Shown here in pieces: positions 4,359-31,970 of a DNA stretch of 33,654 nucleotides (position 1 is the first letter of the stretch; each line of letters begins with the position of its first letter). A program made the position numbers and the translations under genes. This stretch comes from Bdellovibrionales bacterium (lineage in GTDB: Bacteria > Bdellovibrionota > Bdellovibrionia > Bdellovibrionales > UBA1609), in the NCBI GenBank assembly GCA_020435025.1, contig JAGRAG010000091.1:1-33654 (forward strand), written 5' to 3'. The notes below the pieces were generated by a model that was not told the DNA's origin, ran no database searches, and saw only the letters and a list, made by a program, of their open reading frames with translations.

Positions 4359-4524
4359 TTACCAAATTTTTTAGATTTTTGATTTCATGATATATTTTTT
4401 GAGCTCCCTGAATTCTTTTGTTGTGACTCATATTGAGATCTTTTCAAAGAACTTTCTAGATTAATTTTTATCGATTTTCGAAATTAAGATCTAGTAACTG
4501 ATTCAACATTCCGAAAAGTTCGAT

Positions 4525-5547: not shown

Positions 5548-5620
5548 AGTGTGCACAAATTTAAGGAGGACTTCTTGCGATTTATATTAAGATCGCTAGA
5601 ATGAGAAAAAAGGAGTTTCT

Positions 5621-9788: not shown

Positions 9789-9841
9789 CATAAAATTTTC
9801 CAAACTTTTCAAATTCCAGAACTATCTTTTGCGGCTTAAAT

Positions 9842-9869
9842 CTCTTTAATGATATGGAGCATTAAAGAG
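9842..9869 (+). promoter_or_regulatory. 10-bp perfect hairpin whose 3' arm overlaps the Shine-Dalgarno of the first gene of the polysaccharide operon
   Basis: ctctttaatg (9842-9851), loop atatggag (9852-9859), cattaaagag (9860-9869). The purine-rich SD tract aagaggaggg spans 9865-9874, upstream of GTG 9877. No T-tract follows the hairpin. Confidence 0.35.
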
Positions 9870-9876
9870 GAGGGTC

Positions 9877-12059: not shown

Positions 12060-12160
12060 AACCATTAGCCGTCCTGGATTTAAGAAAAATGTACATTTGT
12101 TTTTTCGAATATTGAAGCGGAGCAGAAAAACTGCTATTTCGAACTTCGACCCGGGGGTTA

Positions 12161-13420: not shown

Positions 13421-13422
13421 GG

Positions 13423-14739: not shown

Positions 14740-14740
14740 A

Positions 14741-16793: not shown

Positions 16794-17812
16794 TGGATTG
16801 TATTCAGATGCCTTTGCTGTTTTTGAAATCAACACTCCTGTTTTTTGGATTTTTAGGAGTCCCAACACCTCTTCATGCTCAGAGTTTTATTTCACCACCG
16901 CCTTTGGCCTTAAAGAAATATGATCCTGAGCATCGGATTGGGGTGCCGCTCACTTCACAAGCCTTTCGTTATGATCATTCGGTTCGTTTGATTCCTTCAG
17001 ATCATGATCCTTTAGGTGAGTCGACTTCGGCTCGTTTGCTGATGCAAATGTATCATTTAGGGGTTCGCCACATTGTTGTAGAAATTCCCAGTCTATTAAA
17101 AAGATCCTCCTCGCGCATCTACTTTGGTAATCAGTGGCGACCAGGAAGTCCGAAGGGTTTTTCTGTCTTCGTTGCTCAGGCAAAGAGTTTAAACATCGAA
17201 ATCACATTGGCACTGAAGACCTACGATGAAAGTGACGAAGTTATTTACTCTTTGTCTGAAGAACTTCGCGAATCGACTTTACAATCTTATGTGATATTTC
17301 TTCGGGCCTATGCCCAACTGGCAGAAAAAATTGGTATTGAAGAGGTTTCCATAGGCACGTTATTAGCAGACCTACCTTGTGATAACCGTTTGGGCTTTGA
17401 ACGGATTCTTCAACAAATCTCAGCTTGGTACCAGGGGCGGTTGCGAATGGATTTTTCAGATGAATTTCATTTCATTCGATCCTATAAATGTCTTAAGCAA
17501 AATTCTTCTCTGTTTTCAAGTTTTGCGATTCACAATTCTCCTGTAGCCACTGTATCAATACCTTGGAGTGCCCTACTTCCTTCTCAGACGCTTCTTTTTG
17601 AGGTGCCCTTAATAGGTCTCTATGCCCAACAAAAGAAGGTATTTTCGGAAATGACAGACTTCTGGGAAAAGGCCTTACACAAAGATCAATGGCAATTGGT
17701 GTTTGGCTCCTTTTATGCGGATCGAATGAGAGGTGGTCCCTATGATGAAAGCGATGCACTGAATTCCAAAAAAATTCTTGAGGATCTTGAGCAATGGTAT
17801 CTAAAGCACTAG
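16790..17812 (+). CDS. Secreted TIM-barrel hydrolase-like protein, apparently degenerate paralog of 13423-14739
   Basis: Signal peptide, then the same order of segments as the 13423 gene: LGVRHIVVEIP versus LGANHIILNP, and IGIEEVSIGTLLADL versus AQIEEFTIGAELYSM. The candidate acid/base Glu position is Leu here. The similarity is weak and judged by eye. Confidence 0.4.
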   Translation: MMDCIQMPLLFLKSTLLFFGFLGVPTPLHAQSFISPPPLALKKYDPEHRIGVPLTSQAFRYDHSVRLIPSDHDPLGESTSARLLMQMYHLGVRHIVVEIPSLLKRSSSRIYFGNQWRPGSPKGFSVFVAQAKSLNIEITLALKTYDESDEVIYSLSEELRESTLQSYVIFLRAYAQLAEKIGIEEVSIGTLLADLPCDNRLGFERILQQISAWYQGRLRMDFSDEFHFIRSYKCLKQNSSLFSSFAIHNSPVATVSIPWSALLPSQTLLFEVPLIGLYAQQKKVFSEMTDFWEKALHKDQWQLVFGSFYADRMRGGPYDESDALNSKKILEDLEQWYLKH

Positions 17813-19470
17813 GCGTACTCTTTTTGATCTTTGCGTTTGTAACTTCTACGATGGTATTCGGGACGCCGTCTATTTCTCAGCAAGCTCTGTCTGTTTGTGT
17901 TTATTACGATGCTCCCGTGGATCGTCCGAATTATCAGCTCGGCCACATTTATGCAGTGATGATGCGCAATCTTCTTGGTCACTTTCAAGAAGTTCAACCC
18001 AAACTCATTCCTATTCGTGAGTATCAGTCTCGAAGCCTTTTTGGATGTGATCGAGTGGCCTATTTTGGAAGTTATTACGACTCTCCAACTCCTGAGTCAT
18101 TCTATAACGATCTCAGTCTGTACAAGCGGCCGGTTCTCTGGTCAGGGTACAACATTTGGAATTTGCAGACGTTTATGGGTCCATCGGCATTTTCTAGAAA
18201 AACGGGATTCGAGTTCTTAAGGCTCTTTCAGTATTCAAAGAAACCAAATCCTCCTGTTACGGAGGCGGGCTTTTACAAGTATTTCGACTATAAAGGGCAG
18301 AGGTTTCACAAACTCGATCAAATAGACCATCGATTTCGAAAACACCACTCTCATGTGGAAATAGGTTTGATAAAAAAGGAGTTGGCCGAGGTCTTGTCAT
18401 GGGCAGAAGACAATCATACAGGTTTAAGAACTCCGTATATTACAGCGTACAACGACTTTTTCTATGTTGCAGATATTCCCTTCTCCTACATTCATGAATC
18501 GGATCGCTATTTAATTTTTAGTGACTTGCTTTTTGATTTTTTAAAACTGCCACCAAGACATTCTGTCAAGAAAGCTTTGGTACGTATCGAGGATATTCAT
18601 CCCAGCACCGATCTTCGCCTTTTGTATTTAACACTTTCAAAGTTTAAAAAATACCACATTCCCTTTTTAATTTCAGTGATCCCAAAGTTCGTAGATCCTT
18701 TTGGCTACCTAACAGGGGTTCCTCAATCTAAAACACTCAAACAGAACCCACCCTTAGTAAAAGCCTTGCGATATGCAGAAAATCTTGGTGGAGAATTCGT
18801 GCTTCATGGGTTCACCCATCAGTTAGATCAACAACTTAATTGTGAGACCGGGGCTTCTGGTAGTGATCATGAGTTCTGGGATGGTTGTCTTCGTCGTCCC
18901 TTGGCCTTTGAATCAGAGACCTGGGTCTTAGAGAGAATCTATAAAGCGATCGACCATCTTCATGACGCCGGTTTGGAGTATGTTGCCTGGCTCCCTCCCC
19001 ATTACGAAGCATCACCTCTAGCTTATAAGATGTTTGCTAAGGTCTTTCCAGCAACCATTCAAAGAGTGCGTTACACGCCGGATGGAGCTGATCCAGGCAA
19101 TCCTGCTCATTGGGGCGGTCAATTTTTTCCTTACGAAATCTATCAAGACTATTATGGACAAAGAATATGGCCGGAAAATTTGGGAAATGTACGGATCTCT
19201 GATAAAAAGGAAAGGGATATTCACGTTCGTTCAACAGAAGACATCCTGGAATCCATTCGATTGAACTCCGTCATACGAGACAGTTGGGCCTCATTTTTCT
19301 GGCATTCACAGATCGTCGATACGGAAGAGGGCCTTGCCAGTCTGGATCGCATCCTTAAAGAAATTCACAAATACGGCTATCAGTTTGTCTCCTTATCAGA
19401 ACTCAATCAGATTTCACCGACAAACCCATCGCATCACCTCCTTCCACCCCCACCCACAAAAAAACCCTAA
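17794..19470 (+). CDS. Two-domain secreted protein: unknown N-terminal domain plus DUF2334-type polysaccharide-deacetylase-like domain; Pro-rich tail
   Basis: Signal peptide MVSKALGVLFLIFAFVTSTMVFG. The C-terminal half carries ALVRIEDIHPSTD ... IPFLISVIPKF ... EFVLHGFTHQ ... HEFWDG, which resembles the (D/E)D-H-H pattern of DUF2334/CE4-like deacetylases as I recall them. It ends ...HHLLPPPPTKKP and overlaps the upstream gene by 19 nt. Confidence 0.5.
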   Translation: MVSKALGVLFLIFAFVTSTMVFGTPSISQQALSVCVYYDAPVDRPNYQLGHIYAVMMRNLLGHFQEVQPKLIPIREYQSRSLFGCDRVAYFGSYYDSPTPESFYNDLSLYKRPVLWSGYNIWNLQTFMGPSAFSRKTGFEFLRLFQYSKKPNPPVTEAGFYKYFDYKGQRFHKLDQIDHRFRKHHSHVEIGLIKKELAEVLSWAEDNHTGLRTPYITAYNDFFYVADIPFSYIHESDRYLIFSDLLFDFLKLPPRHSVKKALVRIEDIHPSTDLRLLYLTLSKFKKYHIPFLISVIPKFVDPFGYLTGVPQSKTLKQNPPLVKALRYAENLGGEFVLHGFTHQLDQQLNCETGASGSDHEFWDGCLRRPLAFESETWVLERIYKAIDHLHDAGLEYVAWLPPHYEASPLAYKMFAKVFPATIQRVRYTPDGADPGNPAHWGGQFFPYEIYQDYYGQRIWPENLGNVRISDKKERDIHVRSTEDILESIRLNSVIRDSWASFFWHSQIVDTEEGLASLDRILKEIHKYGYQFVSLSELNQISPTNPSHHLLPPPPTKKP

Positions 19471-19618
19471 TAACCAACTGTAAGCAAAGGAGGCTGTTTG
19501 AGGGTTTTAGTTTTGAAATAGTGCGCCATTTTTTTAAAATTTTAAAGAAGAGGTCGCCGTTCTAAGATGATTTCTTTTAATCACTTGCAATTATCTCCTA
19601 TTTAAGTACCTTTCTTAC

Positions 19619-20968
19619 ATGTCTAATCACATTGAATATATAAAGGGACGTTTAGATGAAGTCAGTCCCACTCATTGTTTGGTCAAGTGGAAGCACGCCA
19701 GTGTCTATTTAGCAGCCGGAACTGTGAAGAGCTGCTGTCACAATTTTTATAGTAATAAGAAATCGACAATCAATGATTCCAACTTGGCCTTTCATGATAC
19801 CGAAAAAGACCAAAAGATCCGTGAGGAGCTTTTACAGGGTCAAAAACCAAAAGAGTGTGATTTTTGTTGGAACAATGAAAAAACGGGAAGTTATAGCGAT
19901 CGACTTTTTTGGAGCAGTCTGTCTTTTATGCGCGATTTTGTAGACGAGGTGGCCGAACATCAATCTCCTAAAGCCTTGAGTCCGAGTTGGCTAGAGATCA
20001 ATTTCTCTCCGAAATGTCAGTTGCGTTGTGCTTATTGTGGACCGGAAGTTTCCAGTGCATGGAAAAAAGAAGTCGATGAGTTTGGTCCCTATAAAACAGA
20101 TCCCTATAACGGTGCCATAGACTATCTGATTCGAGAGAACCGCAATCCTTATGAAGAGTCCGGACGGGATGAGTTTCGCGAAGCCTTTTGGAGTTGGTTT
20201 GCTGAAATTTATTTGGGAATTCGACAGATCACAATCACGGGAGGAGAGCCCCTCTTGTCAGAAGACTTTGATAAGCTTTTAGAATGGATTGATGCAAACC
20301 CTCATCCGGAACTTCAGTTGAGTATTAATACCAATCTCTCTCTTCCAGCCCCTGTCTGGGATAAGTATGTTCAAAAGTTCAAACGGCTGCGCAGCGAGGG
20401 TAAATTTCGGAATCTTTTTGTGCATCCCAGCTTAGATACCTGGGGCGAACAGGCCGAGTACATTCGTTATGGCCTGAAGCTTCCGCTATTAAAGAAAAAT
20501 GTAGAATCTTATCTTAAAGAAAATATAGGTGATTTGGTTTTTAGCTGCACTCTTAATTGTATGAGCCTACCTAAATTAATAGATTTTTGGCAGTACGTTT
20601 ATCAGTTAAAAAAAGAGTTTCCTCATCAATATATTTCATCAACATCCGAGCCGTTGCTTTTCCCTGACTTTATGAGAGTGAGCGTTCTGCCGCCTTCTTT
20701 TATAAAATATGTAGATGAAATTCTTGAATTTTTAGAGTCCCAAGGTGAGGTTTTTTCTGATCATGAAAAAAATGGCCTTCGGCGTGTTCGAACTCTTATG
20801 GAGCAGGGAGAAAACCCCGAATTTCATGTGAAGCAGAAAAAGAATTTCTACACCTATTTTAAGGAATACGATCGTAGAAAGAAAACGAACTTTTTACTGA
20901 CCTTTCCAGAAATGCATGAGTTTTGGAAAGAGTGTCAGGCACTCTGTGAACCGTCAAAAAGCCCTTAA
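19619..20968 (+). CDS. Radical SAM enzyme with an additional N-terminal cysteine cluster (twitch/SPASM-like auxiliary cluster domain placed N-terminally?)
   Basis: The canonical CxxxCxxC is CQLRCAYC at residues 133-140 (nt 20015-20038), followed by a GGEPL motif (ITITGGEPLL). The N-terminal ~90 aa carry C20, C39-C40 and C80-x2-C83 (THCLVKW...VKSCCHN...KECDFCWNNEK). Confidence 0.8.
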   Translation: MSNHIEYIKGRLDEVSPTHCLVKWKHASVYLAAGTVKSCCHNFYSNKKSTINDSNLAFHDTEKDQKIREELLQGQKPKECDFCWNNEKTGSYSDRLFWSSLSFMRDFVDEVAEHQSPKALSPSWLEINFSPKCQLRCAYCGPEVSSAWKKEVDEFGPYKTDPYNGAIDYLIRENRNPYEESGRDEFREAFWSWFAEIYLGIRQITITGGEPLLSEDFDKLLEWIDANPHPELQLSINTNLSLPAPVWDKYVQKFKRLRSEGKFRNLFVHPSLDTWGEQAEYIRYGLKLPLLKKNVESYLKENIGDLVFSCTLNCMSLPKLIDFWQYVYQLKKEFPHQYISSTSEPLLFPDFMRVSVLPPSFIKYVDEILEFLESQGEVFSDHEKNGLRRVRTLMEQGENPEFHVKQKKNFYTYFKEYDRRKKTNFLLTFPEMHEFWKECQALCEPSKSP

Positions 20969-21113
20969 TATCTCAATCCTCCTACTTAAACTTCATAAAC
21001 AGCTCCATTTCATTTTAGATTCATATTTTCAGTTTTTTATCCGTCAGTAGGAGTTATGTATTGAATTCTTCCGCTGCTTTTCTACACTGATTCTAAGGGA
21101 AAGGGTCAATCCG

Positions 21114-22928
21114 ATGAAGTCTTTTTATTTCTTTTTTTTAGCATTTTTCATGTATCTGTTTTGTTTGCCTGCAGCAGCTCAGGACCTTTCTTGGAAAGTC
21201 GAAAAGGTTCTTGGTGAGGCCGTGGTGATTCGAGGTCAAAAAGAGCAAATGGCGGTTCCTGATCTTATTTTAGAGGCTGGGGATATGGTTGAGACTCACA
21301 AACGATCTCGTGTACGATTGATCATGGATCAGCACAAACTGTGGATCGGGCCAAAGACACGCTTTAAGATAAGAGATGATGTTGCAACTAATGACAAGCA
21401 AGATAAGTTGCAGCTTTACTATGGAAAGCTACGTGCAAAAGTCCATGCGCCCTCAGCAAAAGAAAAGCAACAGGAAATGGAGGTCCTAACTCCTTCAGCT
21501 GTTTCTGGAGTGCGTGGGACCGAATTTTTTATCAATGTCTCTCCACACAAGGAAAGTGTCTGCACTATTGAAGGACATGTTCACCTGCAAGACCTGAAAT
21601 CGAACACTCATCATTCAGTGAAACCTTATGCTGGGGTTTCAATTCAGCCAGGGACTCACCCTCATTTAAGGGCCATGGATTCTCGAATAATTGCTCAGTG
21701 GAAAGCAGAAACGTCACTAGAAAACGATCATCCTCAGTGGAGTCCGCATTATCAGCAACCTCATTTGAAGGCACACTCATTTCACCCGTCGTTTCATATG
21801 GGGCTGCGCCTTCAATCTGTTGTTGGTCACTCTAACCACCTTGGTTATGGCTCCAGTTTATTGCCTTCGGAGGACAATGTATTTGCCCAAGCCAAGCTGA
21901 TTCCAGAATTTCACTGGGGAAGTGAACATAAGCTTTTTTGGGCGCCGGAATGGCTCTACGCTTATAGCGAAGAAACAATGACGCTCGATAAAAATCCCGC
22001 CATTTCGGAAAGACTTCTTAGTAAGGTTCGTTTACCTGGAGAACTCTACTATCAGGGTCACCGACAGAACTTGAAGTGGACCTTGGGACAACAACGACTT
22101 CATTGGTTAGATGGTTCACTACTGGGGGACAATCTTTGGAGTCTTGATAGTCGATTGTATCCAGCCTTCCGATTGCAAACTCAGTTTTACCCTTATTTTC
22201 TAGATATCTTTCATGCGGCGTCACAAACAGTTCGAGCCTTTTCGGGTAATGAGCCTCTGACAATGAGTGGACTCCATTTGAGCTATTTATCGTGGGCCCA
22301 TTTTTTTGCTCTTCATCGAAATTATGATGAAAGTAAATCCGGGACTTCAAAAGTCCTACAAAATCACAATGTCTGGGATGTGGGTTTATTTTCCAGTCGG
22401 CACTTTGATCAATGGAATTATCAATTTCAATACGTATTACAAAATGGAAAATACTTTCAAGACCAAGTCAGTAAAATCAACGAAGAAAACTATTTTTATC
22501 AAGTGGACCTGGGAGGCTATCTTCATCCTCAATGGCATGTTCATGCCGAAGTCAGTTACTTAGAAGCCAGCCGCAATTTTTTACCCGGCATGGAGAGTCA
22601 ATTTCTACTAGGATACAGTCAGTTGTTGCAACGGACGAACTTGCAACTTCAAAGATTTCGATTGCGATACAGTCAGACGGATTGGCATTTGATTTTAGAC
22701 TGGTATCAAAGTTGGACAAAAGAAGCCTCAGGTGCCTTCGCTAAGTGGTCTGGAGATCATGTCTCGATTGCCGAAGAGTGGAATGCGCGTTGGGTATGGA
22801 ATTATGAGGATCATTCTCAGATTTCTTGGGTGCTAGTGGCGTTGTTTCCTAAAACCGCTCTTTCGTGGGCCACTCCCAATCCAGAAGCGGGTTTGGCTAC
22901 GCAAATTTATTGGCAAACTTCTATATAG
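21114..22928 (+). CDS. Secreted FecR-domain protein fused to a ~400-aa predicted beta-barrel-like C-terminal region
   Basis: Signal peptide ...LFCLPAAA|QD. FecR-domain motifs are present: EAGDMVETHKRSRVRLIMDQHKLWIGPKTRF, YGKLRAKV, TPSAVSGVRGTEFFI, VCTIEGHV. The C-terminal part is rich in alternating aromatic strands (W/Y/H/Q) in the style of a porin. Confidence 0.6.
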   Translation: MKSFYFFFLAFFMYLFCLPAAAQDLSWKVEKVLGEAVVIRGQKEQMAVPDLILEAGDMVETHKRSRVRLIMDQHKLWIGPKTRFKIRDDVATNDKQDKLQLYYGKLRAKVHAPSAKEKQQEMEVLTPSAVSGVRGTEFFINVSPHKESVCTIEGHVHLQDLKSNTHHSVKPYAGVSIQPGTHPHLRAMDSRIIAQWKAETSLENDHPQWSPHYQQPHLKAHSFHPSFHMGLRLQSVVGHSNHLGYGSSLLPSEDNVFAQAKLIPEFHWGSEHKLFWAPEWLYAYSEETMTLDKNPAISERLLSKVRLPGELYYQGHRQNLKWTLGQQRLHWLDGSLLGDNLWSLDSRLYPAFRLQTQFYPYFLDIFHAASQTVRAFSGNEPLTMSGLHLSYLSWAHFFALHRNYDESKSGTSKVLQNHNVWDVGLFSSRHFDQWNYQFQYVLQNGKYFQDQVSKINEENYFYQVDLGGYLHPQWHVHAEVSYLEASRNFLPGMESQFLLGYSQLLQRTNLQLQRFRLRYSQTDWHLILDWYQSWTKEASGAFAKWSGDHVSIAEEWNARWVWNYEDHSQISWVLVALFPKTALSWATPNPEAGLATQIYWQTSI

Positions 22929-23094
22929 GTTTAAGACAAATAAAACGAACGATATAAATAAAAATATTGATAGGAAAACGTGTATCGACTTTTGCCTTAG
23001 GACTATTGCATAGGAAACTTTATATAGCAAAGTTAACAGTCTTTCTTAAAAGAAAAAAATTCAGGCCGGTCGATGGTATACCGATAGGTCTCTT

Positions 23095-24309
23095 ATGAAA
23101 TTATTTGCTGTCATTTTAGTTTGTAGCTTCCTGCTTTTCAGGCCTCTAGCATATGCAAACAGTCAATGTGATCGATCCCTTTTTCCTAAGATTTTCCAGA
23201 ATATCCAATTTAATTCATGTTTAAGTAGTGCCGACTGGTCTGACTGTTTCCAAGGAAATTTAATTCCTGCTTCTGCGATCTATATAGTCACGGGTGGGAC
23301 CTACTCTTATTTGCAGGTACTTAGATCTGTTCCACAGAGTACTACTAACGTGAATCTTTTAAAGATAGGTATAGAGCTTGATAAGTTGAAGGTGGCTCTT
23401 TTTAAGAAATATGGACCTGAATGGTATAAAATGGTTGAAAGCTCAAGTGCCCTCTATGCAGTAACTGGAGAAAAGGCATTTAAAAATGCCGCTTTAGATA
23501 CCCTTAGGCGAATGGGGGCAGATAGTGCAAAAATTGAAAAGCTTCTCTCTCAAATAGGAAAATCTGCAGCCGTTGAAAGAGGATTGATTTGGACGGGGCG
23601 TGGATTGGCATTGATTGGTGGATCTCTAGGTACAGCCATCTTATTCGGATTATCGCCAAGTGATGTAGACTGTTCTTCGGAAATCATTTCTCAATATTTT
23701 GAGCATGATAGTAGCTGTCAGCCAACTCACCAGATTGGACCTAATGCGTTTAAACTTTTTTCTCTACCCGAGGCAGAAAGAAATAAGCTTATGGATGCAT
23801 ATCCCTCCTTATGTACAATCTATGAAAAAATAGGGCAAAAATTGGAATCCAATATAAAAGAGATTCTCCAGTTAGAAAAACCTCATCTACAGTGCCAAAC
23901 CGACTCATCATTTCAGTTCGCATTCACACGTGATGGACAAGATCACTCACAAAAATACTCATTTTTTCCAAATGGAAAAATAAAAAGCATTGTGACTCGG
24001 CGAAGTGATTTAGATAGAGACGTGACCCTTGAGTTTTCCGATACGGGTCGAGGAAAGACTTCTTTGGATCGAATTAAATTTAAGGGAAATGCCACTGGTC
24101 TACCAGTCTCCATTCTTTTGAAATACGCATCTGAAAACTATTTGGGAAATCAAAAGTATATAGAGGCCGGTTTGCAGGAAATCCCAATTGTTCAGCTTTA
24201 CGGTCCTCTTGCAAAGTCATGCTGTTCAAGTGGGAGAGGCTGTGAGGGACTTGTCAGCGCCGCCCGAGACTCTGAATCACCTTCAAAACGACAACCCTCT
24301 GACCGATAG
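23095..24309 (+). CDS. Secreted protein of unknown function with one internal hydrophobic segment
   Basis: Signal peptide MKLFAVILVCSFLLFRPLAYA|NS. It has several Cys and a hydrophobic stretch GLIWTGRGLALIGGSLGTAILFGL. I recognise no motif. Confidence 0.45.
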   Translation: MKLFAVILVCSFLLFRPLAYANSQCDRSLFPKIFQNIQFNSCLSSADWSDCFQGNLIPASAIYIVTGGTYSYLQVLRSVPQSTTNVNLLKIGIELDKLKVALFKKYGPEWYKMVESSSALYAVTGEKAFKNAALDTLRRMGADSAKIEKLLSQIGKSAAVERGLIWTGRGLALIGGSLGTAILFGLSPSDVDCSSEIISQYFEHDSSCQPTHQIGPNAFKLFSLPEAERNKLMDAYPSLCTIYEKIGQKLESNIKEILQLEKPHLQCQTDSSFQFAFTRDGQDHSQKYSFFPNGKIKSIVTRRSDLDRDVTLEFSDTGRGKTSLDRIKFKGNATGLPVSILLKYASENYLGNQKYIEAGLQEIPIVQLYGPLAKSCCSSGRGCEGLVSAARDSESPSKRQPSDR

Positions 24310-24554: not shown

Positions 24555-24582
24555 TTGCTTCCGTAGAAATTCGATTTATAAT
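24555..24582 (+). promoter_or_regulatory. Candidate sigma70-type promoter for the AspH-like/PIN operon
   Basis: TTGCTT (24555-24560), a 16-nt spacer, then TATAAT (24577-24582), 33 nt upstream of ATG 24616, which has a GGGGG SD-like tract. Confidence 0.35.
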
Positions 24583-24615: not shown

Positions 24616-25386
24616 ATGTTTGATCTAAAAGAATTTCCAACAAGTCTTCAAAAATTTTATCACGACAACAATGATTTGCGTCCGCATTTAGAACCTCAAC
24701 CCAATAAAGACTCCCAATGGATCTATCAACAAAGTGATATCCCATGGCTAAAGCTCAACATCGACACGCCTCACGAAGAGATGTACCGCGAAGCAAAATC
24801 ATGGATTGATGAAATGGTCCCACAAAATTATAAGGAGCTTTTTGACAACCCTGTCTTAGATGGTGAATTCCCTAATCAAAAGGGATGGAATACCATTTGC
24901 GTCCATGGAATTGGACCTAAACATTTTGATAGGGGCTACATGTATGGATACGGTCATGAAGATGAAGTGCCATATATATGGACAGAAGTGGCCGATCAGT
25001 GTCCCATCACTAAAGAGTACTTGCAGTCTTTGCCGTATGAAAAGCTCTATCGTGCTCGATTCACGATGCTGGCACCGGGAGGCTATGCAGCTCCTCATAT
25101 AGGTCGGAAAAAAGCGGCGAGCCACAGCCGAAAAATCAATGTCGCATTAAATCATCCAAAGGGCTTTCACTTTCATCTAGAAGGTCAGGGGCCCATTCCC
25201 TGGGAACCCGGTCGAGCCCACTTGATTGCTGCTGATGATTTTTATCATGCCGTATTTAATCAAAGTGACGAAGTTCGAATTCATTTGATCACAATGGGAA
25301 AGCCTGACTTCAAACGTCTTGAACCCTTAATCCAAGAGTCCTACTATTCAGATGACCCCTTTGGGTACAAGAACTGGGAGGCGTGA
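24616..25386 (+). CDS. Aspartyl/asparaginyl beta-hydroxylase-family (AspH/LpxO-like) 2-oxoglutarate/Fe(II) oxygenase, soluble
   Basis: KGWNTICVHGIG ... QCPITKEYLQSLP ... ARFTMLAPGGYAAPHIG ... RKINVALNHPKGFHFHLEG..IPWEPGRAHLIAADDFYHAVFNQSDEVRIHLI matches the family pattern (L.PG..i.pH.G ... l.v.g....W..G....fDd...H.a.N.s...R..L). This includes the H-x-G first ligand motif known for AspH. No TM segment is present. Confidence 0.7.
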   Translation: MFDLKEFPTSLQKFYHDNNDLRPHLEPQPNKDSQWIYQQSDIPWLKLNIDTPHEEMYREAKSWIDEMVPQNYKELFDNPVLDGEFPNQKGWNTICVHGIGPKHFDRGYMYGYGHEDEVPYIWTEVADQCPITKEYLQSLPYEKLYRARFTMLAPGGYAAPHIGRKKAASHSRKINVALNHPKGFHFHLEGQGPIPWEPGRAHLIAADDFYHAVFNQSDEVRIHLITMGKPDFKRLEPLIQESYYSDDPFGYKNWEA

Positions 25387-25616
25387 TGGCAAAGATTGAA
25401 ATCGAGGTGTCAGAGGAGATTTATTCTCTCTTCCAACAAGAGCCTGAGTATTATCAAAATCTCCTACGTGAACAGCTTACTAAAGCCTGTCGTCAGCGGC
25501 ATCGCAATCCGACTGATTGGGTTAAGACGCTGACTCGACTAAAAACCCCGGTGTGTAATTGGACGGACTTGGAGCAACAAATATTGCGTGGGGCCCTTGG
25601 GGAGCAACGTGACTGA
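25386..25616 (+). CDS. Small (76-77 aa) acidic/basic protein, possible RHH-type antitoxin/DNA-binding partner or hydroxylase substrate
   Basis: ATG 25386 overlaps the TGA of the hydroxylase gene (gTGATGg). The N-terminal AKIEIEVSEEIYSLFQQ looks like an RHH strand-helix. The C-terminal half has two Cys and NPTDW / NWTD motifs. The functional call is weak. Confidence 0.4.
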   Translation: MAKIEIEVSEEIYSLFQQEPEYYQNLLREQLTKACRQRHRNPTDWVKTLTRLKTPVCNWTDLEQQILRGALGEQRD

Positions 25617-26061
25617 AAAAGTTTATCTGGATAGCAGTCTTGGTTTTTATGGGGCAGGGAATATTGGCTACCGCTGGGCTGTTAAAGTGATTAATGCGGT
25701 TTCTGGGAGATTTGTCCATGTCAATACAGACTGTTTTTTCTTTTTGGATCTTATGGATCAACACTACTATCAAAATGACTTCCAAGGAATAAACACTCAC
25801 TTCCAAACGTTTCAAAAGATTCTTCCTCGCGTAGAGGCTGTGACCGTTGCTGACTTTGATCAATCCTACCTTTTATTTAAAGAATATCCCAACGCCAGCC
25901 CTCGATTGTTGCTCGTCGGAGCCATCATGAAACGGCTGGAAATTCGAAAAATTGTTACGACATTTAGTTCAGGGATGGAAAAATTCTCTTTTTTTGAAAG
26001 AACAAATTTAATGACCGTATTAAATGAAATGAAATTGAGTCGTAGGGTGTTAGAAAAATGA
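25609..26061 (+). CDS. PIN-like domain protein, paralog 1 (active site apparently degenerate)
   Basis: I prefer GTG 25609, with GGAG at 25600-25603 and an 8-nt overlap with the upstream stop, over the track start 25588. VYLDSS supplies the beta1 Asp. It aligns colinearly with the next two genes, but the 3rd and 4th acidic positions are Leu and Ser (SPRLLLVGAIM; TTFSSG). Confidence 0.45.
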   Translation: MTEKVYLDSSLGFYGAGNIGYRWAVKVINAVSGRFVHVNTDCFFFLDLMDQHYYQNDFQGINTHFQTFQKILPRVEAVTVADFDQSYLLFKEYPNASPRLLLVGAIMKRLEIRKIVTTFSSGMEKFSFFERTNLMTVLNEMKLSRRVLEK

Positions 26062-26516
26062 GCCCTTTGCTAATCGATTCTAATATTCCCATCATAGCTT
26101 CAGAACAGATCGGCGAAGCCTGGGCAACGGTGATCCTGAACGAAGTGGCCAAAGGAAATTGTCCGGCGTTCACTTCTGTTTTGTACTGTTTGGAAATTTT
26201 AGAATCCTATTGGCAACAGGAAAAGGCCTTTGAAGGACGTGTTCTTTACAAAAATTTTAAAAGCCTATTGGATGATCAAATTCTTCCTCTGACAGTTGAA
26301 GATTTTGATCTTTCTGAATCCCTTTTTAAAAGAACACCGCACTTGCCCCCTCGCGATTTGATTCATTCTGCTGTAGCCATACGCCATCAAATGACGGATC
26401 TCTTTAGTATTGATGGTCCAACTTATACAGACATCGAAGAAGTGCGCTGTGTGACACTCAACGAACTTCTACGACAGCTCAAATTGACAGGAGACTATAT
26501 CGATGAACGCAACTGA
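26058..26516 (+). CDS. PIN-like domain protein, paralog 2 (all four canonical acidic positions present)
   Basis: ATGA overlap with the upstream gene. D7 (LLIDSNI), E46 (YCLEILE), D100 (PPRDLIHSAVA) and D119 (LFSIDGPTY) have VapC-like spacing. The size (152 aa) is typical of PIN toxins. Confidence 0.55.
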   Translation: MSPLLIDSNIPIIASEQIGEAWATVILNEVAKGNCPAFTSVLYCLEILESYWQQEKAFEGRVLYKNFKSLLDDQILPLTVEDFDLSESLFKRTPHLPPRDLIHSAVAIRHQMTDLFSIDGPTYTDIEEVRCVTLNELLRQLKLTGDYIDERN

Positions 26517-26931
26517 TGAGAGGACCTTTCTTGATCCCAACTTTATGAGCTATTTGGTCCAGCAAGGAGAGAGTTTTAACGACGTTCTGTCTCAATTACA
26601 AAAATCCTTTCCCAAGTTGTGTACGGACGTGCGCTGCCTCCAAGAAGTCGTCTATCGCTATCATCTGATGGGAGATACCGAATTGGGCTCCAAAAGGGCG
26701 ATGGAAATTCGTCAGTCCATAGAGGTGTTTCCTATTGATCAAGATGTTTTAGGTAAAATGGAAGAGCTTATGGAGCTCTACCCCAAACATCCTCCCAGAG
26801 AACTCCTTCATTCTTCGGTGATGTTATTGCAGAAGGTCCGATTCATTATTTGCTCACCAGAGAGTCACTATCATGAAATTGAAGAAGTAAATTCTGTTTC
26901 TCCTATTAGTAAAGCCAGTCAAAGAATCTAA
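26503..26931 (+). CDS. PIN-like domain protein, paralog 3 (partly degenerate)
   Basis: It overlaps the upstream gene by 14 nt. The motifs are FLDPNF, CLQEVVY, PPRELLHSSVM (Glu for Asp) and IICSPESHY (4th Asp position is Pro, with an adjacent Glu). It shares the ...EIEEV motif with paralog 2 (TDIEEV). Confidence 0.45.
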   Translation: MNATDERTFLDPNFMSYLVQQGESFNDVLSQLQKSFPKLCTDVRCLQEVVYRYHLMGDTELGSKRAMEIRQSIEVFPIDQDVLGKMEELMELYPKHPPRELLHSSVMLLQKVRFIICSPESHYHEIEEVNSVSPISKASQRI

Positions 26932-27090
26932 AAACTCGACGAAAGGGAAATTGTCGAAGTATATTGTTTTGCCATGTTCTGTGGGCGATCGGTTTATGAC
27001 TCATTTTCATCTGTTTTAGAGCTTTTACGAATAAAAGGAAGAACATCTTTCCTGTTCCGTGATGTTTCATAAGCTTCTATTTATAACCAT

Positions 27091-27119: not shown

Positions 27120-27176
27120 CACTGACCTCGTAAACGTCCAGTTGTTGTCTTGTACGATCTTTTTTACTCTCAGGAC

Positions 27177-28322
27177 ATGAGCCTATCGAGTGCAGAAGTC
27201 TTTAAAAAAGAAGCCGTTAGAACTGAATGGATTGCCAGAAATCTTTGGCCTTGGATTCGTCCTTTATTTAAAAAATATCTAAGTCCTAGATGCAAACGTT
27301 GTGTCAATAATGTTCATTACAGTCGATTGAACGAAGAAGGTCTCTGCGAGCACTGCCTGCAGTTTCACCCTGAAAGCGCAGACAAAGATATTCCCGCTGA
27401 ATGGTCAGAAGAGCTGCATCAACTCTTAGCAAATCCACCGAAGACAGGCGGTCCATATGATGCCCTACTGCTCTTTAGTGGCGGTAAAGATAGCTCCTAC
27501 ATGCTTCATCGCTTAAGAAATGAGTACTCTCACTTAAGAATACTTCTTCTTTTTGTCGACAACGGCTTTTTGAGTCCCGTTGCTATTCAAAATGCCGAGT
27601 CTGTTGCACAAAGGTTTTCTATGGATTTCGTTCGTTGGACGATCAATAAAGACTTTGTTAAAAAGGTGTTTCAAAAGTCATTTCATAACATTAGAAATCA
27701 GAAATCCTACAGCATCGTCGATTTGATGGACGGACAAATGACCTTTGATACAGCAAGAAATCTGGCTTTGCATATGAAAGTTCCCATTGTTCTTTGTGGA
27801 CTTGGACGTGTTCAGTTAGAGAATGTTTATGGTCGAATTGGCTTTGAAATGTCAGAAGATCAAGAAAAAAATCCTTTCGAAACCCAACTGGGAAAAAACC
27901 TGACTGAGGAATTCACCAATGATGAATTGTCGTACTGGTATCAACGCCCTCAAGATCCATCAGATTTTCGACCCCGATTTGTTATGCCATTAGTGGTATG
28001 GGATCCTAGTGAAGAAGAAATTTTAAAAGTGATAACGGAGCAAGGGATGTTAGAGTTGTCCTCAACGAGTCCTCTTGTGACAAACAATCAGATCATTCCT
28101 CTAATAGGAATCTCTGAAGTGAATTTATTAGGTTATAGCACCTTCGAAATAGAGTTTTCCAAAAACCTAAGAGCTGGAAAAATTGAACGATCCTACTGGC
28201 TCAATCTATTTGAGATGCTTGAACTTTCCGCAAAAACTGGAAAGTTCCTTGGGGCCACCATTGTGAGTACTTTGGAGAGACTCCATCTGACCTCATCTGA
28301 CTTGGGATGGTCAAAACGTTAA
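27177..28322 (+). CDS. PP-loop ATP pyrophosphatase with an N-terminal Cys4 zinc ribbon, resembling N-acetyl-sugar amidotransferases (WbpG/LfnA/PseA-like)
   Basis: CKRCVNN...EEGLCEHC zinc-ribbon-like motif, then ~35 aa later DALLLFSGGKDSSYMLHRL (SGGKDS = nt 27477-27494). This is the same architecture I recall for WbpG-type amidotransferases. ATG 27177 is preferred over TTG 27150. Confidence 0.6.
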   Translation: MSLSSAEVFKKEAVRTEWIARNLWPWIRPLFKKYLSPRCKRCVNNVHYSRLNEEGLCEHCLQFHPESADKDIPAEWSEELHQLLANPPKTGGPYDALLLFSGGKDSSYMLHRLRNEYSHLRILLLFVDNGFLSPVAIQNAESVAQRFSMDFVRWTINKDFVKKVFQKSFHNIRNQKSYSIVDLMDGQMTFDTARNLALHMKVPIVLCGLGRVQLENVYGRIGFEMSEDQEKNPFETQLGKNLTEEFTNDELSYWYQRPQDPSDFRPRFVMPLVVWDPSEEEILKVITEQGMLELSSTSPLVTNNQIIPLIGISEVNLLGYSTFEIEFSKNLRAGKIERSYWLNLFEMLELSAKTGKFLGATIVSTLERLHLTSSDLGWSKR

Positions 28323-28331
28323 GGGGATAAG

Positions 28332-29450
28332 ATGGGACGCTATTTGATAACAGGTAGCAGTGGGGTGGTGGGAAGTCGTTGTGCTGTTGAACTTCTCCAT
28401 CGAGGCCATTATCTGATATTATTTCTTCGCCCACGAAAGAGTCAGTCCATTGAAGATCGATGGCAATCCATAGCTCAATTTTATAAAATCGATAAACGTT
28501 TCGATTCCCAAGTTCAGCTCGTTCAATGGGAAATGAGTAAAAAAGATCTAGGACTGGATTCGCAGACAGCTCAAAAAGTATTTTCAAATATTGATGGTGT
28601 TATCCATGCTGCAGCGAGTGTTCATCTCAATCAGACTATTGAACAGGCCAGAGAAAACTCGTTAGAAAGTACGAAAACCTTATTCCAATTACTGCGGCGA
28701 TGGTCTTCTCCCGAAAGAGTTCAGAAAATAGAATATGTATCCACCGTCGGTGTTTCAGGAAGAAGTTCTTTGCCTTTGAAAGAAGAACCTGTAAGGTCAC
28801 TCCCTGAGTTTCATAACACTTACGAACAGGCAAAATTTGAAACAGAGCTTTTTGTTACTCAATCAAGAAGAGAGGGATGGACGGTTACCATTCATCGGCC
28901 CAGCATGGTGGTCGGTGACAGTTTAACAGGAGCCATTCTTTCGTTTCAGGTATTTTACTATATCTTAGATTACATAGCCGGAATAAGATCCAACGGCTGG
29001 GTTCCGGATCTTAAAGAAAAAACTTTGGATATCATTCCTGTCGACTACGTAGCACTGTCGATTGTCGAATCCCTTTTGAATCCAAAGAGCGCCATTGAGA
29101 TACTTCATCTCTGTTCAGGACCGGACCAAGCTCAATCACTAAAACAGTTGCAAACACGGTATCGACAATTTCTTCAGACACATCGAATTTCAATAAGTTC
29201 ATTAAAAGTTCTCTCTCCTCGGCTATTAAGAAGTCTCTATCAAGTCGGAGCTCTGATACCCTTTTTACCTCAACAGAAGAAGTTTCGAGCAGCACTCCCT
29301 TTACTCGACTATTTACAAACGGAGCAGAGTTTCGAAAACAAAAAGAGCTTGCAACACCTCGAGCAGTTTCACATCAATTTGCCCGATCCTAATCAGTATC
29401 TTGATCCCATTTTATCTATTTGGATGGAGCAACAAAATGGCCGAGTCTAA
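28332..29450 (+). CDS. SDR-family thioester/fatty-acyl reductase (NAD_binding_4 / 'male sterility' type)
   Basis: ITGSSGVVGSRC (GxxGxxG), VIHAAASVHLN, NTYEQAKFETE (YxxxK) and IHRPSMVVGDS are typical of terminal thioester-reductase/fatty acyl-CoA reductase domains. Confidence 0.7.
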   Translation: MGRYLITGSSGVVGSRCAVELLHRGHYLILFLRPRKSQSIEDRWQSIAQFYKIDKRFDSQVQLVQWEMSKKDLGLDSQTAQKVFSNIDGVIHAAASVHLNQTIEQARENSLESTKTLFQLLRRWSSPERVQKIEYVSTVGVSGRSSLPLKEEPVRSLPEFHNTYEQAKFETELFVTQSRREGWTVTIHRPSMVVGDSLTGAILSFQVFYYILDYIAGIRSNGWVPDLKEKTLDIIPVDYVALSIVESLLNPKSAIEILHLCSGPDQAQSLKQLQTRYRQFLQTHRISISSLKVLSPRLLRSLYQVGALIPFLPQQKKFRAALPLLDYLQTEQSFENKKSLQHLEQFHINLPDPNQYLDPILSIWMEQQNGRV

Positions 29451-31131
29451 GTCTCCAACCCACTCTTTACTGCAAGTTATCAAAGACAAAGTGGATTCAA
29501 GTCCTGAAAAAGAGATTTTTTTCGAAAAAATTGGGGATCAGTGGATCGGTTATAGCTATCGGCAATTGGCGACAGCAATAGAATTCATGCGAAGAGCATT
29601 GGTAAAACGGGGAGCAGGCCATGGAAGTTTTATTGGTTTGGTCAGCACCACCTCATTTTTAGGAGAAGTGCTCGACAAGGCGATTCAATCTATAGGAGCT
29701 ATTGCAGTTGGTTTGCCAAACCAGTTAAGTGTTTTAGAAATGAATTCAACTTTACATACAATTCGCCTGAGCGGAGTGATCTGCCTTGATGAAATCTCTT
29801 ACAATGAATGGACAAAGGCCGATGCAATAGATCCTTTTTGGATTTGGAGAGCCGAAGTATCTTGGCCATCTTCTAAGAATGATTATTTGAATTTTGAGGA
29901 ATGGATCATTGATCCTCAAGCTGACGCTGCTCTGATGATGACTTCTGGTACAACAGGAGATCCAAAATCCATCGTTTTCACGCAAGAACAATTATATCAA
30001 AGCGGAAATGCGCTGATTCCGCAATTAGAGATGATCTTCAAGACAGAAAAGCCAACAAAATCGATCTCCTGGTTACCAACTTACAATGCAACAGGAAGAT
30101 TGCTTCACACACTTTCTCTAATCAAAGAGGTTCCACTGTACTTTGTTAAGGATCCTAGGAACATAGCTAATTCTATTTATGAAATCGAACCGACCGTCTT
30201 CTTTGCCCCTCCAAGGTTTTATGAAAAAGTGTATCAAGAAATTACAAATCAAATTCGGAAAAAGGGACTTATTATTGAGCATCTATTTCATTGGTCAGCT
30301 GTTATCAAGAAATGGCCAATTCTAGGAGCTTGGTTTGATACTAAGATCTTCAAGACTCTAAGATCTAAAGTATTTGGGTCGAATATCCAATATCTTTTCA
30401 GTGGCTCTGCACCTCTTAGGCAAGATATTTTAGCTTTTTTTATCAAGATAGGATTGCCCATCTATGAGTGCTACGGAATGACAGAGATCGCTCAACTGAT
30501 TGCGATCAACACTCCGGACCAGAGGCGTTGGGGATCAGTGGGAAAAATCACCAATGGACAAAACGTTATCATATCAGATGAGGGAGAAGTTCTGATAAAG
30601 GGACCCACCGTCTTTAACGGATACTTGAAGGACCCTTCCCCTCAGTATTTTACCAAAGAAGGATTTTATAGATCAGGAGACCTTGGCTATCTTAAAGATG
30701 ATTACATCTATCTGACGGGACGTAAAAAAGAGATCATAAAAACGTCGAATGGCCAAAGAGTCTCTCCCCAACAAATTGAACATTTTTTTAGTGAAATAGA
30801 AGAAATCGATTTTTTGATCGTCATTGGTGACAATCTACCGTATTTAACTGCTCTGATCTCTGTAGATCCCATCCATTTTAAAGAATATAAAAAAATGTAC
30901 GGTTCTAATGCGGAAAAAAATATCAGAAAAGAGCTTCAAGTTAAAATAGATAAACTCAACTACACACTATCTAAAAAAGACAGGATACATGGCTTCATAC
31001 TCATCAAAGATCCGCTCTCTTTAGAAAAAGGACAGATCACAAGATCTCTAAAAATTCGAAGAGAGCAACTCATCAAAGACTTTCAAAAAGAAATTCACAC
31101 TCTTTACGCTGTAGAAGAGTCTACAGGATAA
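29437..31131 (+). CDS. AMP-forming acyl-CoA synthetase (long-chain fatty acid-CoA ligase type)
   Basis: MMTSGTTGDPKSIVF, YECYGMTE, SGDLGYL..DYIYLTGRKKEIIKTSNGQRVSPQQIE. ATG 29437, with GGAG upstream and a 14-nt overlap with the reductase gene, is preferred over the track start 29401. Confidence 0.9.
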   Translation: MAESKSPTHSLLQVIKDKVDSSPEKEIFFEKIGDQWIGYSYRQLATAIEFMRRALVKRGAGHGSFIGLVSTTSFLGEVLDKAIQSIGAIAVGLPNQLSVLEMNSTLHTIRLSGVICLDEISYNEWTKADAIDPFWIWRAEVSWPSSKNDYLNFEEWIIDPQADAALMMTSGTTGDPKSIVFTQEQLYQSGNALIPQLEMIFKTEKPTKSISWLPTYNATGRLLHTLSLIKEVPLYFVKDPRNIANSIYEIEPTVFFAPPRFYEKVYQEITNQIRKKGLIIEHLFHWSAVIKKWPILGAWFDTKIFKTLRSKVFGSNIQYLFSGSAPLRQDILAFFIKIGLPIYECYGMTEIAQLIAINTPDQRRWGSVGKITNGQNVIISDEGEVLIKGPTVFNGYLKDPSPQYFTKEGFYRSGDLGYLKDDYIYLTGRKKEIIKTSNGQRVSPQQIEHFFSEIEEIDFLIVIGDNLPYLTALISVDPIHFKEYKKMYGSNAEKNIRKELQVKIDKLNYTLSKKDRIHGFILIKDPLSLEKGQITRSLKIRREQLIKDFQKEIHTLYAVEESTG

Positions 31132-31142
31132 AATCGATGAAG

Positions 31143-31970
31143 TTAGGTTTGAGTTTCTGTTGATACAGAAAGATTCTCTGGATTTGGTTCCTTATACTTA
31201 ACAAACGGAATCAGTAACAACCAATGAAGGTGCGAGTATTGAGGTTCCCGAAATGACGTAATACCTAGTTGCATTTTAGTGAGTGTCTCTGTTGGCAAAA
31301 ATTTATAGGTCTTAAAAAAATAGTCCCACCAAGGCAAATTAAAGCCAAAATTAGTATTCAGCTCCTTCCAATCCGTTGAATGGTGTACTTTATGCATTTC
31401 AGGAGTGACCAAAAACTTTCGAAGCCACTTATCAAATCTTTTAGGTAGAAGAAAATTCCCGTGATTGAACATTGCTGTCGCATTCAATAATACTTCAAAT
31501 ATAACAACAGCAACAGGATTGGCTCCAATCAAAGCCACAATTCCGATCTTGATAAGTGCGGACAAAAAGATTTCAATTGGGTGAAATCGAGCCCCGCTGG
31601 TCACATCCAAATCTAGATCCTGATGATGCATTTTATGAAGAGACCAAAGTAAAGGAATGGAGTGAAAAAACCGGTGTTGCCAATAAATGGCAAAATCTAA
31701 AATTAAAACTGTTAATAAAACATTGATCCAAAAGGGAAGGGACAGCCAATGAAAAAGCCCCCACTGGTTTTCTTGTACAAAAAAGGCCGCACTGACGGCA
31801 GTCACAGGCAATAAAAGTCGAACAGTGAGCTGTCCCAAACCAATAATTCCGAAGTTACTATACCAGCGGTGCCAACGAGGAAGAGCTCGTTTTCGGTGAG
31901 GACGAATCACTTCTAACAGTGCGACGAAAACAAAAACACTTAAAAAAACACCAACTCGGACTTTATCCAC
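31143..31970 (-). CDS. Fatty acid hydroxylase superfamily membrane enzyme ('sterol desaturase family')
   Basis: His boxes HRFFH, HKMHH(QD) and HKVHH sit among 4-5 TM helices. The GTG start at 31970 has a GAGGTGG SD upstream. It is convergent with the ligase gene with only 11 nt between the stops. Confidence 0.85.
   Translation of the reverse strand: MDKVRVGVFLSVFVFVALLEVIRPHRKRALPRWHRWYSNFGIIGLGQLTVRLLLPVTAVSAAFFVQENQWGLFHWLSLPFWINVLLTVLILDFAIYWQHRFFHSIPLLWSLHKMHHQDLDLDVTSGARFHPIEIFLSALIKIGIVALIGANPVAVVIFEVLLNATAMFNHGNFLLPKRFDKWLRKFLVTPEMHKVHHSTDWKELNTNFGFNLPWWDYFFKTYKFLPTETLTKMQLGITSFREPQYSHLHWLLLIPFVKYKEPNPENLSVSTETQT

Follow-up and report, generated by a model that had tools for sequence, protein, structure and literature searches.

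A small peptide and three predicted VapC-like PIN paralogs form a conserved four-gene module, coupled to sulfonate-type importers and, in Bdellovibrionota, to an AspH-type oxygenase

We analysed a five-gene locus in a 33,654-nucleotide stretch of DNA from a Bdellovibrionales bacterium (GenBank assembly GCA_020435025.1, contig JAGRAG010000091.1), referred to below as the window. All five genes lie on the forward strand: g1 (24616-25386) encodes a soluble AspH-family Fe(II)/2-oxoglutarate (2OG) oxygenase of 256 amino acids (aa), g2 (25386-25616) a small peptide of 76 aa, and g3 (25609-26061), g4 (26058-26516) and g5 (26503-26931) three paralogs of predicted PIN fold, of 150, 152 and 142 aa, whose acidic active sites are degenerate, complete and partly kept, respectively. 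Few toxin families of prokaryotes have as many members as the PIN/VapC proteins, and to our knowledge the bacterial ones characterised so far are, almost without exception, simple toxin-antitoxin pairs of two genes. Judged from the sequences of related loci, g2 to g5 are shown here to form a four-gene module of one small peptide and three anciently diverged PIN paralogs, descended from an ordinary VapC-type toxin family; this core is coupled to sulfonate-type importers across domains.

Each gene of the locus overlaps the next. Stop and start codons of g1 and g2 share one nucleotide in TGATG at 25384-25388; the GTG of g3 at 25609 lies 5′ of the TGA of g2 at 25614-25616, giving an 8-nt overlap; g3 and g4 meet in ATGA at 26058-26061, and the ATG of g5 at 26503 opens a 14-nt overlap with g4, the stop of which ends at 26516. 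These junctions were read directly in the sequence and, like the five open reading frames (ORFs), lie exactly where the original prediction had placed them. Its proposal of one co-translated unit gains weight from the overlaps together with Shine-Dalgarno-like motifs found 4-10 nt 5′ of every start (GGGGGA, GGGAGG, GGGGAG, AGGGTG and AGGAGA for g1 to g5). Overlapping or abutting junctions of this type were seen again in 12 orthologous loci, so the coupling is a conserved feature and not a product of chance. Products of 256, 76, 150, 152 and 142 aa were also obtained by independent gene calls on identical metagenome contigs. Longer forms of g2 and g3 could begin at alternative GTG codons (25383 and 25588, respectively), but the N-termini of orthologs favour the starts at 25386 and 25609.

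The three PIN paralogs share about 20% identity with one another. Aligned as family profiles with hhalign, g3 matched g4 with a probability of 100% (E = 2.7e-41) and g5 matched g4 with 99.2% (E = 2.4e-19); among the three, probabilities were 100, 99.2 and 99.1%, which establishes paralogy. Against the Pfam PIN family (PF01850, cut-off 23.6), g4 scored 23.2 bits and g5 18.6 bits (E = 0.003), and g3 gave no match. A g4-family profile search covering 1.84 billion representative proteins returned 11 clusters at E ≤ 1e-30, which are the orthologs, and 301 at E ≤ 1e-10. The tier directly below the orthologs (1e-15 to 1e-29) consists of single PIN proteins with PF01850 scores of 27-67 bits, some of them annotated as VapC toxins, and membership of the trio in PF01850 was made transitively, from the g4 profile through these single proteins to the family. 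As this tier is made up of ordinary VapC-type proteins, the trio is a divergent offshoot of a normal VapC family. An AlphaFold model of g4, built from 31 sequences, reached a mean predicted local distance difference test score (pLDDT) of 90.5. Its best Foldseek matches in the PDB were PcrIIC1, VapC and FitB (E 4e-5 to 1e-3; template-modelling (TM) scores 0.66-0.80), with TM scores for the top-ranked structures of about 0.56-0.72 when normalised to the query and up to 0.80 when normalised to the target. Nearly all of the best 46 matches were VapC, FitB or archaeal PIN proteins, plus PcrIIC1; the cyclodehydratase RohQ also matched, weakly (E about 0.015, TM about 0.5). From the g4 model, to which hhalign ties g3 and g5, the three proteins are true paralogs with a predicted VapC-like PIN fold of three alpha/beta/alpha layers, in agreement with what had been read from the window alone.

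Their active sites have fared differently. g4 is the sole paralog with the full acidic set, its tetrad D7, E46, D/E100 and D119 being invariant or nearly so. In g5, D11 and E48 are invariant, the third position is E100 in most loci and V in two, and the fourth reads S-P-E/K-S, not S-x-D. g3 has lost the third acidic position, where L, V, G, A or I is found; its invariant residues are D8-S-S, G20-Y-R-W-A-x-K26, P98-R99 and E124. Two non-catalytic motifs are strictly kept, QIGEAWA in g4 and GYRWAVK in g3. Complementary charge between the paralogs was dropped as evidence for a heteromer, the isoelectric-point pattern not being conserved, and a sulfur relay of the DsrEFH/TusBCD kind, which likewise has three paralogs and a small protein, was rejected on the PIN fold and the lack of any conserved Cys. 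Separately, a 140-aa PIN protein from a Chloroflexales metagenome-assembled genome (MAG), P0146, carries GNIGYTWAVAIL and scores 104 and 76 bits against g3 and g4, hinting at related modules beyond Bdellovibrionota.

The peptide g2 is conserved in its C-terminal ~30 residues (R51, K53, N58-W59, D61, E63), its N-terminal half being variable; across 30 sequences V46, R51, V56, N58, W59, E63 and I66 are invariant. An AlphaFold model (pLDDT 76.5) predicts coil at residues 1-9 and helices at 10-18, 20-38, 42-51 and 59-70. Neither Pfam nor a profile search of PDB sequences nor Foldseek yielded a relative. In bacterial orthologs the N-terminal pattern I-x-I-x-L-P-D-E-L followed by two predicted helices is compatible with a ribbon-helix-helix (RHH) domain, and the archaeal orthologs, 35 aa long, correspond to the C-terminal half alone. 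The NPTDW motif and the two Cys residues of the window's g2, put forward earlier as features of a hydroxylation target, proved not to be conserved across orthologs. Moreover, N58-W59...E63 is equally conserved where no oxygenase is encoded, so hydroxylation does not explain its conservation. We also considered g2 as the precursor of a ribosomally synthesised peptide that is modified after translation (RiPP) of the ranthipeptide kind, given a C-x3-D motif and a radical SAM gene nearby. This idea was rejected because Cys57 is not conserved, for example in a locus (L013) that itself has an adjacent radical SAM gene, and because the partner transporter carries a binding protein and is therefore an importer.

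Related loci were gathered through homologs of g1, g4 and g2, contig look-ups and scans of sequence collections, and their ORFs were classified by family hidden Markov models; loci are numbered L005 to L025 where they need to be told apart. The order peptide-g3-g4-g5, with overlapping or abutting junctions, is kept in 14 independent loci (the window and 13 others). The sole exception to the full order is a short 'Ignavibacteriaceae' contig (L015) in which g5 is a truncated remnant of ~30 codons (1218-1310; MKEPDKKDSFFVDVQVIAFLVERG...), followed by a TctA transporter gene; this contig measures 7.5 kb and may be mis-binned. The hosts, which take in predatory bacteria as well as marine archaea, comprise Bdellovibrionales, Pseudobdellovibrionaceae, Bacteriovorax and Bacteriovoracaceae MAGs, the one 'Ignavibacteriaceae' bin, a lineage of 32% G+C (L020) and archaeal contigs. 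Two of the latter are clearly archaeal by their neighbours (Spt4, S24e, S27e, L10P, L1 and an Rpb7-type subunit; 30% G+C), and their trio plus 35-aa g2 (L022, 8474-9857; L023, 6798-8181) adjoin an NMT1-type ABC importer and a CMD/AhpD-like protein, with no oxygenase. Identities of the trio between loci are flat at about 40-50%, and the hosts span 30-56% G+C, which argues for long residence and not for recent spread. As a unit in other genomes, the peptide and three PINs recur in 13 further loci, and the oxygenase beside them in part of these.

The most constant neighbour of this core is an ABC importer. A NitT/TauT-family (SsuA/TauA-like) system adjoins the module in 12 of the 14 independent loci, with permease, ATPase and NMT1/SsuA-like binding-protein genes adjacent in L006, L008-L012, L014, L018, L020, L022, L024 and L025. 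Two importer sets flank the module in L020, one on either side, and in five loci (L006, L011, L014, L024, L025) the importer lies between g1 and g2 in one run of overlapping genes. Two importer subtypes can be told apart, one in L006, L009, L011, L012 and L014 and the other in L008, L010, L020 and L022, with identities of 38-80% within a subtype and about 25% between them. Both are linked to the trio, and this argues for selection for the pairing and not for common ancestry of one island. Against the SsuA family, the binding proteins of related loci give E-values of 1e-20 to 1e-30; among solved structures, E. coli SsuA (8e-9) and TauA (2.5e-8) come nearest to them. The permease resembles TauC, SsuC and SaoP, each below cut-off; SaoP is its best NCBIfam match, yet an SAO organometallic transport system was rejected, as, set against the paper on that system, the likeness is a general one of the nitrate/sulfonate/taurine group. 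The original prediction could not have seen this link because the window has no importer, and its autonomous VapBC-like cassette does not stand: what is constant is the peptide and three PINs, with an importer recurring beside them.

Besides the importer, sulfatase/phosphodiesterase genes of the alkaline-phosphatase superfamily, SBF carriers and anion porins recur beside module loci.

The first gene of the window encodes, from its sequence, a soluble AspH-type enzyme, as had been claimed. Residues 109-226 match Pfam PF05118 (Asp_Arg_Hydrox) at 41.1 bits (E = 2.1e-10; cut-off 22.6), and neither a hydrophobic or membrane segment nor a tetratricopeptide repeat (TPR) domain was found. No usable relatives of g1 were obtained from the PDB by single sequence or family profile, and the alignment to human AspH was made directly, the AspH stretch used being checked against the PDB. 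In this BLASTP alignment, which covers g1 residues 196-225, H211 corresponds to the iron ligand H725 of AspH and R221 to R735, which binds 2OG, the Arg sitting ten residues past the distal His. The proximal His presumably lies in P-H161-I-G163, which as a motif resembles P-H679-T-G681 of AspH. Across 18 g1 orthologs H211 and R221 are invariant and A-P-H161-I-G163 nearly so. The N-terminal half (residues 1-108) is strongly conserved and gave no family match. AspH-family enzymes hydroxylate Asp/Asn residues of proteins, and the bacterial family members LpxO and OlsC are membrane-bound lipid hydroxylases; the OlsC match of g1 is weak (7e-4, far under cut-off).

A g1 ortholog of 52-87% identity adjoins or sits within the PIN cluster in 10 of the 14 independent loci, in variable positions. 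Its translation is coupled to that of g2 in three loci (the window, L008 and L009); elsewhere it is inserted between g4 and g5 in L010, divergently transcribed in L012 and L018, and placed before the permease in L006-type loci, where three importer genes separate it from g2. Archaeal loci and the 32% G+C locus have no g1 ortholog. The close homologs of g1 number 19, and among the seven whose contigs were inspected six adjoin a PIN trio. The seventh appears unlinked: in sample ERZ21878121 a g1 ortholog stands alone on a 2.6-Mb contig (L005, 8001-8837) and a peptide-plus-trio module on a 1.7-Mb contig (L013, 8363-9892). These contigs are similar in G+C (37% and 36%) and tetranucleotide profile (correlation 0.968), and for this reason they probably belong to one genome in which g1 and trio are unlinked. 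The g1 clade is apparently restricted to genomes with the PIN trio. The oxygenase is dispensable for the peptide and three-PIN core and is a lineage-specific addition in Bdellovibrionota. A perfect palindrome, TTGACAAATGTCAA (FNR/CRP-like, TTGAC-N4-GTCAA), lies 5′ of the oxygenase gene in two Bacteriovorax-type loci (L006, 7931-7944; L025, 6028-6041), with a one-mismatch copy in L014 and none in the leader of the window; L006 also has a Crp/Fnr-family regulator gene 3′ of g5 (12772-13446, minus strand).

In the window, the spacer 5′ of g1 measures 306 bp from the end of the preceding ORF at 24309, as predicted; the 245 bp claimed for the 3′ spacer hold with a next gene starting at 27177 and become 218 bp if that gene starts at TTG 27150. 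The candidate sigma-70-like promoter TTGCTT-16-TATAAT (24555-24582, plus strand) is present in the sequence, with a perfect -10 element and a -35 matching at only 3/6 positions. It was not among the sites listed by a consensus scan, and promoter-like sites in the region were not enriched above shuffled sequences; a promoter here is possible yet unsupported. The 306-bp leader holds no Rfam element and no inverted repeat, and no operator-like inverted repeats were found in either flanking spacer. A riboswitch or other RNA element for the module was rejected, the leader and the related loci having yielded only a tRNA and a thiamine pyrophosphate (TPP) riboswitch. The latter (L012, 724-832, minus strand, 63.1 bits) lies ~7.5 kb from the module, 5′ of the gene for a sodium:solute symporter, and is probably unrelated. 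Directly 3′ of g5, a weak terminator-like hairpin at 26936-26957 (plus strand) has 7 pairs, 3 of them G-C, and a T-poor tail, and is a consensus match only. A 113-aa antisense ORF inside g2 and g3 (25522-25863, minus strand) has no support and is most likely spurious.

The operon lies within a glycan or lipid biosynthesis region (8466-24309 and 27150-31970), most of which is not common to other loci. Before it lie genes for an MFS transporter, a GT2 glycosyltransferase, a UDP-GlcNAc 2-epimerase, GH113 and DUF2334 proteins, a radical SAM enzyme, a FecR-domain protein and a 404-aa Cys-rich secreted protein without family; after it come a WbuX-like PP-loop amidotransferase, a thioester-reductase-type NAD_binding_4 protein, an AMP-ligase and a fatty-acid hydroxylase. 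The radical SAM enzyme, which has a twitch domain (19619-20968; NCBIfam N_Twi_rSAM, 4.6e-83), shares 33% identity along its entire length (E = 6e-79) with that of L013, whose gene (9893-11224, minus strand) abuts g5 and is followed by a PqqD/RRE-like gene. The window and L013, which share this related gene, are two of the three loci without an adjacent importer. In L014 and L015 a B12-binding radical SAM enzyme (9877-12984, minus strand, and 3986-7050, respectively; 47% identical) and two class I methyltransferases directly adjoin the module, and a sulfotransferase and ADI/DDAH-like genes near the module are common to L013 and L014. The neighbours shared among L013, L014 and L015 may reflect shared synteny or a second functional link.

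Taken together, these comparisons lead us to posit, with a probability of roughly 40%, that the module arose from VapBC by domestication, works as a hetero-oligomer in the service of organosulfonate-type import and is not an addiction or defence cassette. By analogy with VapBC, g3, g4 and g5 would join into one hetero-oligomer, with g4, which would supply the only fully intact Mg2+-dependent nuclease site, as catalytic subunit; g5 is half-degenerate and g3 degenerate, and we therefore propose that both provide a scaffold or specificity. The two predicted helices at the C-terminus of g2 (R51, K53, N58-W59, D61, E63) would bind the PIN subunits and gate the active site as VapB does with VapC, and in bacteria its RHH-like N-terminal half may tether the complex to DNA. 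The assembly could then act as a gated RNase or regulatory accessory that ties expression or translation to the supply of an imported anionic nutrient, most likely an organosulfonate. A dedicated soluble AspH-type enzyme, g1 has joined the operon in the Bdellovibrionota clade and heads it in the window. It would work in the same pathway, most simply by oxidising the imported compound as TauD does or, less probably, by hydroxylating g2 or a PIN subunit. Of the options raised from the window alone, the one that casts the PIN proteins as non-toxic partners of the oxygenase comes nearer to the picture suggested by the comparison of loci.

Several observations weigh against this interpretation. The SsuA-model scores of the binding proteins (73-106 bits) are below the curated cut-off of 163.5, and TauD, SsuD and SsuE Pfam families are absent among the called genes of all loci, the PF05118 protein being the sole oxygenase. 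No importer genes lie near the module in the window, in L013 or on the short L015 contig, so the module can stand apart from the importer. Recurrent neighbours in a few loci, among them radical SAM enzymes, methyltransferases, sulfotransferases and ADI-like enzymes, are left without an explanation. For g2, no RHH or antitoxin family was found by Pfam (30 members), by a PDB profile search or by Foldseek, and the window shows no operator-like inverted repeat 5′ of the module. The proposed complex, its RNase activity and its gating by g2 all draw on the likeness to VapBC. Finally, g4 keeps every sequence feature of an active VapC toxin, so it may still be a genuine toxin.

Among the alternatives, the one that survives best, which we consider unlikely, is that the PIN trio and g2 form a non-nuclease enzyme complex whose substrate would be the imported compound or a phosphorylated or sulfonated derivative of it, with g1 as the oxidative step of the same catabolic or salvage route in Bdellovibrionota. 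Such a complex would fit the overlapping operon that module and importer share in L006, L011, L014, L024 and L025, the recurrence of alkaline-phosphatase-superfamily genes, SBF carriers and porins nearby, and a conservation of QIGEAWA in g4 and GYRWAVK in g3 that is unusual for toxins; the g4 model also weakly matches a small-molecule enzyme, RohQ. However, this match is far weaker than those to VapC, g4 retains the nuclease tetrad of VapC exactly, and ordinary VapC toxins stand closest to it. No known small-molecule chemistry accounts for a 35-aa peptide subunit plus three paralogs, and the module is present without an importer in the window and L013.

Less probable again, and conceivable for the Bdellovibrionota loci, is a toxin-antitoxin system switched by oxygen or 2OG, in which g1 would hydroxylate g2 (for example at Asn58 or Asp61) or a PIN subunit, and the supply of oxygen, iron or 2-oxoglutarate would decide whether the nuclease is set free or held back. 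The coupling of g1 to g2 in the window, L008 and L009 and its position between g4 and g5 in L010 speak for it, the g1 clade seems confined to trio-carrying genomes, and g2 carries an invariant N-W-x-D/E that could meet an enzyme family acting on protein Asp/Asn. Yet this motif is equally conserved in the oxygenase-less archaeal and low-G+C loci and is unlike the EGF consensus of AspH, and the NPTDW and Cys residues of the window's g2 are not conserved. Nor is g1 always close, being three importer genes away in L006-type loci, divergent in L012 and L018, and apparently unlinked in L005/L013.

To a further reading we give a slimmer chance still: the peptide and three-PIN assembly would be a hitherto unrecognised, hetero-oligomeric, cross-domain cytoplasmic partner of NitT/TauT importers, with one live and two degenerate sites and an activity set by the nutrient (RNA cleavage or chemistry on the imported compound), to which Bdellovibrionota would have added AspH-like hydroxylation of the Asn58/Asp61 motif of g2. 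If true, toxin-antitoxin derivatives that have been domesticated would gain a new class, and the control of a PIN nuclease through protein hydroxylation would, as far as we know, be novel.

Lower yet on the scale stands a selfish or defensive multi-toxin VapBC module that stabilises importer islands or hitch-hikes with them, functionally unconnected to importer and oxygenase. It would account for the layout of a small upstream gene followed by PIN genes, for an outgroup whose closest members are annotated VapC toxins, and for the unrelated contexts in which the module occurs (a flagellar cluster, a glycan cluster, ribosomal genes) on both sides of the boundary between bacteria and archaea. But three orthologous PIN lineages in fixed order, one of them catalytically degenerate, linked to two importer subtypes and embedded in importer operons, are hard to reconcile with it, and the flat ~40-50% divergence across hosts of 30-56% G+C indicates long residence. 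The module is also absent from mobile and defence collections: the PADLOC-DB defence models gave no significant match (best E 0.015-0.033, over short stretches), and tblastn found no relatives among 72,556 plasmid or 50,697 phage records, contrary to the defence role raised earlier. Chance juxtaposition of oxygenase gene and PIN cluster, another of the earlier options, has nothing more in its favour than the lack of g1 in some loci, and is rejected because the synteny is conserved: 10 of 14 loci have g1 beside or inside the cluster, with identities as low as about 52%, and they include the insertion between g4 and g5.

If the domesticated import module were confirmed, it would clearly exemplify how a toxin-antitoxin system can become a device of several subunits for housekeeping or regulation. 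The sulfonate-type importer group of Bdellovibrionota and marine archaea and the soluble bacterial AspH-type oxygenase both appear to be unstudied, and the module is a concrete candidate for oxygen-dependent control of a nuclease. Its families are small, that of g4 comprising about 10 clusters at 50% identity, and have uncultured organisms as their only source, which limits its immediate reach. The original prediction had called the AspH-PIN arrangement unfamiliar, and in the literature that we searched (PIN with hydroxylase, PIN with sulfonate importer, tandem VapC paralogs) no description of it was found.

Parts of the arrangement do recall known systems. As in TauABCD and SsuEADCB, the genes of a NitT/TauT importer, whose binding protein is SsuA/TauA-like, are accompanied by that of an Fe(II)/2OG oxygenase, and the L006-type order of oxygenase, permease, ATPase and binding protein recalls TauABCD; the module oxygenase, however, is of PF05118 and not of the TauD family, SsuD and SsuE are missing, the binding proteins fall under the SsuA/TauA cut-offs, the window itself has no importer, and the tau/ssu operons hold no counterpart of the PIN module. 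With AspH, LpxO and OlsC, g1 shares the PF05118 domain and an H-x-G...H...R arrangement like that of AspH H679-x-G681, H725 and R735, but it is a soluble 256-aa protein with neither TPR nor membrane segment, and its N-terminal half belongs to no family.

The closest likeness is to VapBC and FitAB, with which the module shares a small upstream gene overlapping PIN genes, a VapC fold and D-E-D-D tetrad predicted in g4, VapC toxins as nearest sequence relatives, a short C-terminal segment of g2 that could bind PIN, and, in bacteria, an N-terminal pattern of g2 that may be ribbon-helix-helix-like. Unlike their bicistronic antitoxin-toxin pairs, all complete loci have one small gene and three non-interchangeable paralogs in a fixed order that is kept across domains, with one or two of the paralogs catalytically degenerate; the archaeal g2 lacks the putative DNA-binding half and g2 matches no antitoxin family. 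ABC importers accompany the module, as does an oxygenase in one clade; it was not found on plasmids or phages, and it has importer, porin, sulfatase, flagellar or ribosomal genes for neighbours instead of mobile or defence islands. PcrIIC1, the type II-C Cas9 accessory that gave the best Foldseek match (PDB 8wmm), differs in being a single protein where the module has a trio and a peptide, no CRISPR genes lie at the module, and the relation is structural only (21% identity over the aligned part); it is nevertheless a VapC-like PIN protein of small size that serves another machine as a recruited partner and does not act as a free toxin.

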